Source: an uncultured Methanosarcinales archaeon
GTDB taxonomy: Archaea; Nanobdellota; Nanobdellia; Woesearchaeales; DSVV01
Direction of reading: 5' to 3'
DNA length: 64,000 nt
Assembly: GCA_964452935.1 (NCBI GenBank)
Contig: CAYVNO010000003.1
Location: 18,163-82,162 of the forward strand
Positions 11,461 to 42,117 of this stretch are shown here, piece after piece. The position numbers were made by a program, and so were the translations under genes. Numbering within the stretch: the first letter of the stretch is position 1; every line of letters begins with the position of its first letter. The notes beneath the pieces are model-generated. The model was given only the letters and a program-made list of their open reading frames with translations, did no database searches and was not told the origin of the DNA.

Positions 11461-11654
11461 CCTCCTCCAACAAAACTAACAATCTCAATAACATCTCCTT
11501 CTTTCACCTGAACATTCTCCCACTCTTCTTTAGGAACTATTTTCATATTATGTTCAACAACAATCCTATCATCATTTAACCCCTTATTATTAACAATCTC
11601 TCTAATAAACTCACCACTAATATCCTCTAACTTCCCATTTATCTTTAATTGCAT
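11457..11654 (-). CDS. thiS: Sulfur-carrier protein ThiS
   Basis: 65 aa with a ubiquitin-like size and a C-terminal GGG. It overlaps thiG and thiE. Confidence 0.8.
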
Positions 11655-12229
11655 TTTAATTCCTCAATAGCTGCTTTAACATCTTCTGCTTTAGTTATCG
11701 CAGTAATTACTGCAATATTTTCTGCACCTAATTCATACAAACTTTTAACATTCAACTCTTTAATCCCTCCTATAAAAAATACAGGATGTTTAGACAACTC
11801 CACTACTTTCCTAACATCATCTAACCCAACATTATACTCCTTTGTCTGTGTAGAAAAAACAGGACCAAAACCAATATAATCAATATCTAACTCATTTGCT
11901 TCTCTAACTTGTTCTAAAGAATGTGTAGACAAACCAATTATTTTATCTCCAACAACTTCTCTTATCTTTTCAATAGAAAACTTCTGAATATCTTCTTGCC
12001 CAACATGTACTCCATCTGCATCTAAATCTTTTGCTAGATATGGATCATCATTAACAATAAACTTAACTTCTCTACAAATCTTCTTCAACTCTCTGCCTAA
12101 CTTAAGCAACTCTTCTCTACTTTTTCCTTTCTCTCTCATCTGAACATAGTCTACACCAGAAACCGCTTCTTTAACTATCTCTAAAGTCGATCTATCAGAA
12201 TATTCCTCGCTTGTAACTAAGTATATCAT
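11645..12229 (-). CDS. thiE: Thiamine-phosphate synthase
   Basis: Has VQMREK, GVHVGQED and FGPVFST motifs. Length is 194 aa. Confidence 0.9.
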   Translation of the reverse strand: MIYLVTSEEYSDRSTLEIVKEAVSGVDYVQMREKGKSREELLKLGRELKKICREVKFIVNDDPYLAKDLDADGVHVGQEDIQKFSIEKIREVVGDKIIGLSTHSLEQVREANELDIDYIGFGPVFSTQTKEYNVGLDDVRKVVELSKHPVFFIGGIKELNVKSLYELGAENIAVITAITKAEDVKAAIEELKCN

Positions 12230-12325
12230 CTCTCAAAATGGAAGATTTAGTCTTTTTTAAATATATCCCTATCATTAATATTTCAAACATAAACATTTAT
12301 AAATACTTCAAGCAAACTCAACCTT

Positions 12326-12607
12326 ATGGCAGAAACAATAACAAAAGACATGAATATCACTGAAATAGTTCAGAAATACCCACAAGTAGCTGAAGTATTT
12401 TTCAAGCATGGAATGCATTGTTTAGGTTGTGCAGCAGCTCACTTCGAAACACTAGAACAAGGTTGCACAGCACACGGAATAGATGTAGAAGCAATCCTAA
12501 AAGACTTAAATAAGGCTATAGAGAATAAATCTGAATCAAAACTTTTGAACGAAAGTGAAAACGGTTTACAGAAATCGGAGATTTCTGAAAAACCAGAAGA
12601 AGATTAA
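12326..12607 (+). CDS. DUF1858 / hybrid-cluster-protein-associated redox disulfide domain protein
   Basis: Has ITEIVQKYPQVAEVFFKHGMHCLGCAAA...TLEQGCTAHGID, the characteristic CxxC-containing small domain. Confidence 0.6.
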   Translation: MAETITKDMNITEIVQKYPQVAEVFFKHGMHCLGCAAAHFETLEQGCTAHGIDVEAILKDLNKAIENKSESKLLNESENGLQKSEISEKPEED

Positions 12608-13710
12608 TTCTTTTCTTGTTCAATTCTTTCAATAACTGATCTAAGTAATAATGGCCAGACTATTGTTGCATCTGCATGAACTTCTGCCCACATTCCGCCT
12701 TCTTCTTTAGGAACAAACTTCCCCCAAGAAACACCTTCTTCGTATGTGCAACCACTTAATCCGCCCCAATGTACCGGTTCTGGACAGATTCTAACTCCGT
12801 AATAAAATCTTTTATTCCAAGGACTGTCTTTTGGAGCATAATACCTACCTGATTTTGAGTTATCAATTAACCTAAACCTAATAATGTCTAAATATGGTGC
12901 AACCTGTTGTGCCCAATTCCTTGGAACACCGCCACCAATCGTAAATATCCCAATCTTCTTTGCATTGTAAATCATATCAGTATACTTTTCCAAATCTAAG
13001 AACGGATTAAACATCAACTCTTTCTTCCCATCCATCTTCTGTTTTCTATTAAACAAACCAAAATCTAACCCAAACTCAGAATCAGTAAACGCAGGAATAA
13101 ACACAGGGACATTTTTCTCAAACGCAGACTTCAAAACACCTCTGCCTTCAAATTTTTTAACTAAAAACTCGCCCAACTTATTATTTAATTCATAACTGCA
13201 CGTAATAGCTCCTTCTGGAAATGATTCTAAAACCTCATTTACCATAACTTCAGCATCATCAAGATTCTTTTCTAACTCCAAAGTATCATAAACTCTATTG
13301 TAATCCTTCTTAAACAACTCTTTATCATCCATCTGTCCAAATTCATACTTAAAATGCTCCATACCTGCTGCTTCAACAAATCCGTGAGCCATAAGTGCAC
13401 CAGTACTAACAATAGCATCAACATAGCCTCTATCAATCATCTCAGAAATAACTAAACCCATCTTTGCAATAGTCATCGCACCTGATAAAGTCATAACAAC
13501 TGTACAATCAGGGTCTTTTATCATCCTATATAAAACTTCATGTGCCTCTCCAACTGTTCTTCCACCAAAAGAAGTTTTGCCCATAGCTTGCACTAGTTTC
13601 AACGCACTATCACATTTATTCACATCTAAAGATTCCAACGGTTTCAATCCCAATTTATGTGGATCAACAAACCCACACTTTAGGTCTTCTTTTTCACATC
13701 CCATAATCAT
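12604..13710 (-). CDS. dys: Deoxyhypusine synthase
   Basis: DHS-like throughout (TLSGAM, IGGGVPRNW). The start was moved to the internal MIMGCEK methionine because a TATA-like CTTATATAT sits on the track start, which suggests a leaderless mRNA. Confidence 0.9.
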   Translation of the reverse strand: MIMGCEKEDLKCGFVDPHKLGLKPLESLDVNKCDSALKLVQAMGKTSFGGRTVGEAHEVLYRMIKDPDCTVVMTLSGAMTIAKMGLVISEMIDRGYVDAIVSTGALMAHGFVEAAGMEHFKYEFGQMDDKELFKKDYNRVYDTLELEKNLDDAEVMVNEVLESFPEGAITCSYELNNKLGEFLVKKFEGRGVLKSAFEKNVPVFIPAFTDSEFGLDFGLFNRKQKMDGKKELMFNPFLDLEKYTDMIYNAKKIGIFTIGGGVPRNWAQQVAPYLDIIRFRLIDNSKSGRYYAPKDSPWNKRFYYGVRICPEPVHWGGLSGCTYEEGVSWGKFVPKEEGGMWAEVHADATIVWPLLLRSVIERIEQEKN

Positions 13711-13752
13711 AAAGAATACTGCTACCATATATAAGCTTTACTCTCAGAAAAA

Positions 13753-13923
13753 GCTCTGTAGAATTGCTATTTAAAGCACCTGCCTAGGGGAGGTGGGTGG
13801 GAAGAATAAGATTCAAGAATAAACTAAACCCGAGCATTAAAATTTCTATTGAAATTTTAATTATTGCGATGGGTTTGACTTTATGTCTGCTTCGGTGCTA
13901 TTTTTAAAGCAATTCTACAAAGC
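13753..13923. other. Long-helix-closed intergenic element E1 (structured RNA or MITE-like insertion)
   Basis: 13753-13780 pairs with 13894-13923, a helix of about 28 bp with an internal loop. There is an inner perfect 10-bp hairpin ATTAAAATTT/AAATTTTAAT and a G-run GGGGAGGTGGGTGGG. The element is flanked by the direct repeat CTCT(C)AGAAAAAGCT at 13741-13755 and 13924-13937. Confidence 0.45.
13797..13907 (+). CDS. Candidate small hydrophobic peptide ORF inside E1 (36 codons, GTG start)
   Basis: My own translation gives MGRIRFKNKLNPSIKISIEILIIAMGLTLCLLRCYF. GGAGG lies immediately upstream of the GTG. The stop codon lies in the 3' arm of the closing helix. It is below the ORF-track length cutoff. 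Confidence 0.25.
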   Translation: MGRIRFKNKLNPSIKISIEILIIAMGLTLCLLRCYF

Positions 13924-13925
13924 CT

Positions 13926-14720
13926 CTAGAAAAAGCTTTTCATAATCAAATTAATTATTTTATCATCAACACTGAAAACTATCTTCTGCCCGTTCTTCAA
14001 ATTCAATCTAAATCCAATACTATCAGCTATTAAAATAAGATTATCTGACTTTGAGTCTATCTCCACTTTCTTATCTTTCTTCAACACATCTCTTGTCATC
14101 TTTGCTTTTGTTAATCTTCCAGAATAAGCATCTCTAACAACATACTGAAATTTATCAGAGTTTAAACTTAACTTTTTCCCACCAGCACTATATATCCAAG
14201 CAGTTGACCCAGCAGCAGCCCCTATTAAAACACCACTACTTTTCTGTTCCTCTTCTTTCTTACCAACTCTCAATACATACCTCGATGTTCCGCTAACATC
14301 TTTATGTCCAATATAAAATTCATTCAAAGCTCTCCCAACAAACTTTCCATCAACTTCTGCTTTCAAGCGATGTAACTTAAAATTTCTAAATTTTCCTTTC
14401 AATAGTTTTCCAAAAATCTTCTCAAAATTACCTTTATCACAACAAGTAAAATTACCTTCAGTCTCTTCAATGTTAGAATTAACACCCATCGTCGGAGTCT
14501 CATCTAAAACAAACTGAGCAGCTTTCAAGAAAGTACCATCTCCTCCTACAACCATGATTAAACTAACATTCTTAACACAGTCCTTTGTTAGTTTGCTTCT
14601 ACAAACCTCATTATAATTGATATTATTTTTCTCTAGAACACTCTTAACAATATTGGTAGTCTCATTCCCTATATTACACATATCCTGTTTATGTACTAAT
14701 AATACGTTCTTTACATCCAT
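13926..14720 (-). CDS. nadK: NAD kinase
   Basis: Has the MVVGGDGTFLKAAQ (GGDG) motif and the ATP-NAD kinase fold length of 264 aa. Confidence 0.85.
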   Translation of the reverse strand: MDVKNVLLVHKQDMCNIGNETTNIVKSVLEKNNINYNEVCRSKLTKDCVKNVSLIMVVGGDGTFLKAAQFVLDETPTMGVNSNIEETEGNFTCCDKGNFEKIFGKLLKGKFRNFKLHRLKAEVDGKFVGRALNEFYIGHKDVSGTSRYVLRVGKKEEEQKSSGVLIGAAAGSTAWIYSAGGKKLSLNSDKFQYVVRDAYSGRLTKAKMTRDVLKKDKKVEIDSKSDNLILIADSIGFRLNLKNGQKIVFSVDDKIINLIMKSFF

Positions 14721-41685: not shown

Positions 41686-42117
41686 TTATATATAAAATGA
41701 GTATTTCACACATAATTCTCTAAAAATGGGCTTATTTTGACGAAAAATCAGGTAAAAAATACCTATTTCTCACAATTGAATTACTTTCATACATAAAACA
41801 CCCCCTAAAAGTGAGGGATAATTCATAGAGTAAACAATCCACACATAGCATCAGATTATCCAGAAAATCACACTTAAAACTCACTTTTGCCCCAAAATAC
41901 ACTATTTTTCACTAAAAATCACCCAAAAATACACACTTCAGCATCAAAAAACACTATAATCACACTAAAAGTGAGGACTAAACCGCATATTCGCAACTAA
42001 ATCAGCAAAATATCACAATTTCCTATACTCAAAGCCAAAATTAGGCACTCGGAATTTCCCCTTATTTTGCCCATAAAAGAAGTGAGTTTTAGCACATTTT
42101 CATATATGAAATTGACT

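Follow-up and report, generated by a model that had tools for sequence, protein, structure and literature searches.

What occupies the gap between nadK and dys, and does it encode anything? In the 64,000-nucleotide (nt) stretch of DNA from an uncultured archaeon that was analyzed here (the window), the NAD kinase gene nadK (positions 13926 to 14720) and the deoxyhypusine synthase gene dys (12604 to 13728), both assigned by Pfam and both on the minus strand, are separated by 197 bp. The gap contains an element, E1, that is closed by a long helix, comes within 2 nt of the nadK stop codon, and carries a small open reading frame (ORF). The initial annotation saw in it either a type I toxin mRNA or an insertion resembling a miniature inverted-repeat transposable element (MITE). 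The explanation that we favor, with somewhat better than an even chance of being correct, is that E1 is a diverged but intact copy of a noncoding, helix-closed repeat family that is restricted to one archaeal order and behaves like small mobile repeats. All E1 coordinates are whole-window positions and were verified on the sequence.

How can E1 belong to a family? The whole 197 nt is single copy in its source genome (G000; 1.66 Mb in 49 contigs), which the names on nadK homologues place in the Woesearchaeota (DPANN), and blastn finds no relatives of it in 60 related genomes; a simple multicopy MITE detectable by BLAST is ruled out on that ground. When E1 was compared by blastn with 400 genomes of the order, the sole matching segment was TAGGGGAGGTGGGTGGG-AGAA, and the family was found through a motif of 16 to 22 nt rather than through BLAST with the whole element. 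A pattern search with the motif gave 3 matches in G000, 17 in a second genome, G339, and 1 to 4 in a few others. A covariance model, R1, was built from 17 copies with E1 left out. It finds E1 over the full model (positions 1 to 135) at 13770 to 13906 on the plus strand, with 71.2 bits and an E value of 1.9e-15. By R1, G000 has 4 copies, G339 has 20, and G062 has 8, and the model matches 50 sites among 69 metagenome loci that had been retrieved by motif alone. The family exceeds 100 members, with elements 105 to 190 nt long. Further copies, which the initial annotation had proposed to look for by the helix arms or the peptide, do exist; it was the G-run motif and R1 that found them, and the peptide is not conserved among them.

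The family unit opens with a closing helix, P1, of 9 to 25 bp and copy-specific sequence, followed by a U-rich linker, the signature AGGGGAGGYGGGYGGG-NAGAA, and a variable stretch; its second half consists of an AAAA-P2/P3 hairpin-UUUUG segment, NCUUCAG-UYCGCUCU, and the 3' strand of P1. All G positions of the signature are invariant, and variation is confined to three non-G positions. In alignment A1, which includes E1, 22 columns are invariant (the AGGGG-GG-GGG-GGG, AGAA, AAA, UUUG, CU, and GCU positions), and E1 has every one of them. Its own signature, AGGGGAGGTGGGTGGG-AAGAA, lies at 13786 to 13806, with the G-run proper, GGGGAGGTGGGTGGG, at 13787 to 13801. The 5' strand of P1, AGCACC (13775 to 13780), pairs with GGTGCT (13894 to 13899). 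P2, AAACCCGAGC / GCGATGGGTTT (13826 to 13876), surrounds the variable apical hairpin P3, which in E1 reads as a perfect 10-bp hairpin, TTAAAATTTC-TATT-GAAATTTTAA (13837 to 13860). The conserved 3' strand, GACTTTATGTCTGCTTC (13877 to 13893; family consensus G-NCUUCAG-UYCGCUCU), might pair with part of the G-run as a further helix, P1b. All of these features are on the plus strand. Pairing of the G-run with UYCGCUCU fits two registers, shows almost no double changes, and involves a nearly invariant sequence; the P1b helix is a prediction with which the data are compatible.

Outside the family model, P1 of E1 is extended by an outer shell helix with a 5' arm, GCTCTGTAGAATTGCTATTTAA (13753 to 13774, plus strand), and a 3' arm, ATTTTTAAAGCAATTCTACAAAGC (13900 to 13923, plus strand). 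Together they make a closing helix of roughly 28 bp (13753 to 13780 with 13894 to 13923), composed of a perfect 12-bp outer block, TGTAGAATTGCT / AGCAATTCTACA, an imperfect, A/T-rich middle, and an inner GCACC/GGTGC block. A 211-nt stretch at E1 folds far more stably than its shuffles on either strand (z of -4.9 for plus and -6.0 for minus; 0 of 200 shuffles equal), and the GC skew of the region is opposite to that of the flanking genes. The helix, the 10-bp hairpin, the G-run, the 36-codon ORF beginning with GTG, and the direct repeat that the initial annotation described all lie where it had placed them. E1 is no assembly artifact, because an independent contig, Ga0105014_1078098 (sample JGI 3300007755), carries the identical sequence.

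Is the fold itself what has been conserved? Across the 17 copies without E1, all 10 pairs of P1 have changed on both sides; paired cells amount to 96.9%, against 83.6% after shuffling (none of 500 shuffles reached the observed value) and 39 to 50% when the partners are slid. The covariation also holds on 50 independent metagenome copies. Paralogues within a single genome differ in P1 sequence and always keep the pairing; GGGGCUGUGCC/GGCACAGCCCC, AGUUUGUGCC/GGCACAAACU, GGAGUAUGCC/GGCAUACUCC, and the AGCACC/GGUGCU of E1 are four P1 helices, each different. Three sets of orthologous loci retain the element, with flanks 74 to 79% identical and core blocks 82 to 100% identical, and one orthologous pair (L153 and L156) shows three compensatory double changes in P1. 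Because diverged genomes retain orthologous copies with compensatory changes, these comparisons indicate that the family fold is under selection. P1 covaries as a conserved helix should, but such changes would be expected of RNA and single-stranded DNA alike and cannot separate the two.

Does E1 also encode a peptide? The 36-codon ORF (13797 to 13907, plus strand) would yield MGRIRFKNKLNPSIKISIEILIIAMGLTLCLLRCYF (MGRIRF...RCYF), a peptide with a basic head and a tail resembling a transmembrane segment; GGAGG precedes its GTG, and its stop lies within the 3' arm of the closing helix. It was these features that suggested a type I toxin-antitoxin locus, in which a 36-residue toxin would be controlled by hok-like pairing of the mRNA ends. 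The GGAGG and the GTG, however, are positions 4 to 8 and 12 to 14 of an invariant nucleotide motif, and the ORF, which other copies do not conserve, is incidental. Of 58 nonredundant homologous elements, 46 have GTG at this site and 12 have GCG or GAG there. The frames of copies that retain GTG run for 5 to 52 codons (median of 6), and the peptide that copies have in common is the motif-encoded VGR(I/S), with nothing beyond it. In the 57 copies other than E1, the ORF is absent, shortened, or deprived of its start, and a hydrophobic, transmembrane-like segment is found in E1 alone of the 58 (mean hydropathy of 2.26 over 19 residues). The 3-nt spacing from GGAGG to GTG is short for a Shine-Dalgarno sequence, and the peptide has no match in Pfam. 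The end pairing is the family closing helix, present also in copies without any ORF, and helix and G-run alike are accounted for by a noncoding family. By the yardstick that the initial annotation itself proposed, conservation of the peptide wherever the helix occurs, the 58 copies speak against a toxin, and we regard that reading as very nearly excluded. The comparison indicates that the ORF is an accident of one copy of a noncoding element, and a false lead, that of an archaeal type I toxin at E1, is removed.

How did E1 come to lie between nadK and dys? The gene order of thiE, a gene for a DUF1858 protein on the opposite strand, dys, and nadK (window 11645 to 14720) is kept at locus L049 of G004, a genome of the same family and a different genus. 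There, the TAG of nadK is followed by the ATG of dys without a spacer (...GGAGTTAG-ATGAAT...). Taking E1 and one copy of its flanking repeat out of the window leaves nadK ending in ..KSFF-stop, 15 nt before the dys ATG. In other relatives with a dys orthologue, nadK is not adjacent. As for nadK itself, the closest relative is a fragment with 100% identity, from an independent contig on which E1 is present as well; all others are at most 47% identical, and no population-level empty site was found among them. A gain of the 197-bp spacer in the E1 lineage seems much more likely than a loss in the G004 lineage, because the distribution of the family is patchy. Of 401 genomes of the order, 15 contain the motif; about 125 genomes representing the class's other orders were examined, and none does. 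In the taxonomic family of G000, the 27 remaining genomes give no blastn match to the G-run segment, and a pattern search of 7 of these 27 found the motif in none. The family thus seems to be restricted to this order of Woesearchaeota-type DPANN archaea. Viruses were considered too: the strict motif is absent from IMG/VR, where 26 matches to a loose motif are not family members, and the shell arms of E1 are likewise absent from that database.

If E1 was inserted, did it leave a mark on its target? It is bracketed by a direct repeat with the consensus CTCT(C)AGAAAAAGCT. The left copy, CTCTCAGAAAAAGCT (13741 to 13755), reads ..SFF-TGA on the minus strand; the right copy, CTCTAGAAAAAGCT (CTCT-AGAAAAAGCT; 13924 to 13937), contains the final nadK codons and the TAG stop. 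The two differ by an indel. The exact 10-nt word common to both flanks is equalled or beaten in 37 of 20,000 shuffles, and 66 of 20,000 random genome places of the same geometry do as well or better. A chance origin is unlikely, at about 0.2 to 0.3% (P of about 0.002 to 0.003), but the word is A-rich. E1 also has terminal inverted repeats (TIRs), GCTCTGTAGAATTGC / GCAATTCTACAAAGC.

Similar marks are found around some other copies. In G339, the unit reaches about 30 nt past P1 on each side and ends in TGTAAAG...CTTTACA, beyond which flanks are unrelated, and 4 of about 10 two-ended copies have perfect duplications of 5 to 6 bp (TAATG, GTTTG, ATTAG, and TGATTT). Two marine copies have another shell and duplications of 9 bp (L142) and 7 to 8 bp (L141). 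The subfamily ends are TGTAAAG...CTTTACA, GGGTGCGATTA...TAATCGCACCC, and, for E1, GTAGAATTGCTATTT.... Between nonsyntenic copies, similarity extends strictly from P1 to P1. The orientation of neighboring genes is near random (30 minus and 20 plus upstream, 22 minus and 21 plus downstream); copies lie nearer to gene 3' ends than to 5' ends, often abut stop codons, and in some cases fill convergent gaps wholly.

The arms of the E1 shell, GTAGAATTGCTATTT / AGCAATTCTAC, lie outside the core (13770 to 13906) and recur once elsewhere in G000, at another element of about 145 nt that is likewise closed by a helix and lies between two minus-strand genes (C9:58590-58735; locus L243, about 291 to 436). 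The arms of that element, GGAATTGCTATTT / AGCAATTCTAC, are related to the outer arms of E1, AATAA abuts both of its ends, and its core is unrelated to E1, single copy, and without a match in Rfam 15 at E values up to 1. E1 therefore looks composite, a family core within a second inverted-repeat shell. Put together, the favored account would run as follows. E1 would have been gained at the 3' end of nadK through an insertion that duplicated 11 to 15 bp of target, arriving inside the extra inverted-repeat shell that it has in common with the C9 element. The family as a whole would spread as a small nonautonomous mobile element, MITE-like or similar to the repetitive extragenic palindromic (REP) doublets known as REPINs, while selection would keep the fold itself, in RNA or single-stranded DNA. 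The G-run strand would probably also give rise to a small RNA, with neighboring TATA-like boxes as promoters.

A number of observations weigh against this account. A strict scan finds duplications at 7 of 69 copies and at 18 of 345 controls (5%), no enrichment, and the duplications that were found differ in length (5, 6, 9, and 11 to 15 bp). The direct repeat of E1 has an indel and is A-rich. A single relative, of a different genus, keeps nadK and dys adjacent, and a loss of the spacer there retains some small probability. Orthologous copies persist between flanks that are 74 to 79% identical, with compensatory changes in P1, which would be easier to reconcile with a resident function than with an insertion in decay. 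None of the approximately 110 copies adjoins an autonomous element or a transposase gene, although no search was aimed at TIRs around ORFs. Of 9 carrier genomes, 3 have the Y1 transposase (PF01797), as do 6 of 9 noncarriers; G000 has none. Finally, wobble counts in P1 and P2 (15 G:U versus 11 A:C) do not tell the folding strand apart. An association with Y1 or the related REP-associated tyrosine transposases (RAYTs), as in palindrome-associated transposable elements derived from IS200/IS605, was rejected, as PF01797 does not track the family. What remains of the MITE-like alternative in the initial annotation is thus a part of it: the dispersed family, the empty junction in G004, the inverted ends, the direct repeat, and the TIRs with 5- to 9-bp duplications elsewhere are in its favor, while the missing autonomous partner, the inconsistent and unenriched duplications, and the structural selection on the core are not.

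Could the copies instead be genes that serve the host? The family might consist of small RNA (sRNA) genes, paralogues with their own promoters like the tRNA or C/D sRNA families, in which a clamp of P1/P1b and P2 exposes a G-rich strand that might, for instance, form a G-quadruplex, bind a protein, or mimic a Shine-Dalgarno sequence, and which spread by duplication or hitchhiking without transposition of their own. The retention of orthologous copies with well-conserved core blocks and compensatory changes in P1 suits such genes, as do the limitation of G-run variation to non-G positions and the pairing that paralogues maintain with different P1 sequences. So does the placement of TATA-like words on the G-run strand, 18 of 37 of which fall in a peak 31 to 50 nt ahead of P1. 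Inspection by eye shows a TATA-like box some 20 to 45 nt upstream of the helix in each of the four G000 copies, including the three others at C14:44391-44524 (plus strand), C29:16005-16137 (plus strand), and C8:49523-49655 (minus strand; the fourth copy, found by R1), each with its own closing helix and a box about 25 to 45 nt upstream. These boxes are a weak hint of a plus-strand RNA. Against host genes stand the presence of the family in about 2 to 4% of the order's genomes and in 1 of the 28 genomes of the taxonomic family of G000, copy numbers from 1 to 20, convergent gaps in which some copies sit 0 to 15 nt from either stop and leave no room for a promoter, and the TIRs and target duplications of some subfamilies. 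We consider sRNA genes a serious but distinctly less probable reading than a mobile repeat. A bolder form, which we hold to be a little less probable still, is that DPANN archaea have in the G-run element a new class of functional structured RNA, kept by selection at orthologous loci, a covarying clamp that displays G4-N-G2-N-G3-N-G3, its mobile features being only a vehicle. If that were true, the tract could act as a G-quadruplex, the core of a ligand- or protein-binding site, an anti-Shine-Dalgarno decoy, or part of a catalytic internal loop.

What of the genes on either side? E1 stands between codirectional genes that abut translationally in G004, and it could act in cis on their minus-strand transcript as a stabilizing or processing hairpin, or a terminator-like insulator, or it could have introduced or exposed a new dys promoter. 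In favor are the strength of the minus-strand fold (z of -6.0) and a TATA-like box, ATATATAA, at 13727 to 13734, followed by in-frame ATGs in dys. Yet the family is found in every one of the four gene arrangements and in either orientation, with no common role apparent, and an effect in cis would be at most a secondary one of the E1 copy; as the explanation of E1 it is improbable. On the plus strand, the box precedes the outer helix by about 20 nt; on the minus strand, it overlaps the ATG annotated for dys. It may serve as promoter to a plus-strand RNA, to a shortened and leaderless dys, or to the two together. The annotated ATG of dys (13726 to 13728, minus strand) overlaps the TATA-like TTATATAT, further in-frame ATGs (M7 and M9) follow 18 and 24 nt downstream, and the G004 orthologue aligns from residue 15 only. 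Translation of dys may start later than annotated, possibly from a leaderless transcript.

Several other repeats were encountered along the way. The 20 copies of the G-run element in the 1.3-Mb genome of G339 (loci L110 to L138) come in short (about 108 nt) and long (about 145 nt, with an extra apical hairpin) forms. Within the window, R1 also gives a weak partial match at 42027 to 42116 on the minus strand (11.7 bits, E value of 0.91), in an ORF-free palindrome region that shares AAAA...UUUUGGCUU; this match is probably due to chance. A different structured repeat, UUGCACUUU ... GGGTGGGTGGAGGGCA ... AAAGUGCA ... UCCCUCCCU, is present in 5 to 7 copies per genome in G170 and G401 (L211, L212, L215, L216, and L219 to L226), and its layout suggests two interleaved pairings. 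Finally, G265 has a further G-rich repeat, GGTGGTGGTTGGGGGAGGTGGGTGGG, in 4 copies.

Has this family been described under another name? E1 has no credible match among the 4227 models of Rfam 15 at E values up to 10, and the other G000 copies have none at E values up to 1. A missed universal RNA was ruled out: the signal recognition particle RNA, the only Rfam gene in the window, is at 2471 to 2740, RNase P RNA is on contig C12, and ARAGORN finds no tRNA in the window. A likeness to the hairpin ribozyme, suggested by the way in which the invariant AGAA faces AGUY somewhat as in its loop A, was dropped, given the asymmetric loop, the absence of a loop B, and the lack of an Rfam match; nor could the internal loop be read as a K-turn or a loop E. 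The searchable literature holds nothing relevant on the G-run family. Within the reach of Rfam 15 and that literature, the initial annotation's remark that such an element would be new in an archaeon of this type holds true. What is gained is a family whose members number more than 100 and for which a calibrated model exists, while neither an Rfam entry nor a paper on it was found. That a compact DPANN genome should carry up to 20 copies in 1.3 Mb, and that diverged species should keep copies at one locus with compensatory changes, points to either a persistent selfish replicator or a small RNA, and either answer would add to the very thin knowledge of noncoding elements in uncultivated archaea. 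R1 can be used to annotate the elements and to avoid spurious calls of small ORFs.

How does the G-run family compare with known systems? Type I toxin mRNAs, hok/sok and its relatives, resemble E1 alone among the copies, through a small hydrophobic ORF in an end-paired fold-back; they differ in that the E1 peptide is not conserved, no antisense partner is evident, and the architecture belongs to a noncoding repeat. Integron attC sites are alike in conserving structure over sequence, with a single-strand hairpin that abuts gene ends. G-run copies, however, are solitary among housekeeping genes rather than gathered in cassette arrays, and attC sites have no counterpart of the long invariant G-run with inner hairpins.

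The closer parallels are among small mobile repeats. MITEs are known in archaea, among them the SM-type elements of Sulfolobus and those of haloarchaea. Prokaryotic MITEs are likewise small, gene-less, multicopy, intergenic, and patchy, with inverted ends, and have counterparts of the target duplications seen in some family copies (5 bp with TG...CA ends in G339, 9 bp at L142, and 11 to 15 bp at E1). Unlike them, the G-run family has no parent insertion sequence with the same ends in view and no constant duplication length. Its P1 ends vary within a genome and yet stay complementary, unlike a transposase-binding TIR, and its core has been kept at orthologous loci as well as between the families of an order. 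REPINs and the REP mosaic elements (BIMEs) mobilized by RAYTs, as well as ERIC, Correia, and RUP, are similar as hairpin-forming, dispersed repeats of intergenic gaps with compensatory arms, and bacterial palindromic repeats also persist for long periods, often near gene 3' ends. The G-run family differs from these repeats in that it has no link to Y1 or RAYT, folds into a much larger and more intricate structure, carries a G-rich block of 21 invariant nt, and has an archaeal host. The last comparison is with the structured RNAs of Rfam. The G-run element is known here from sequence alone and matches none of those models, but it resembles such families in what defines them, namely, covarying helices around invariant loop nucleotides in more than 100 members from many genomes.

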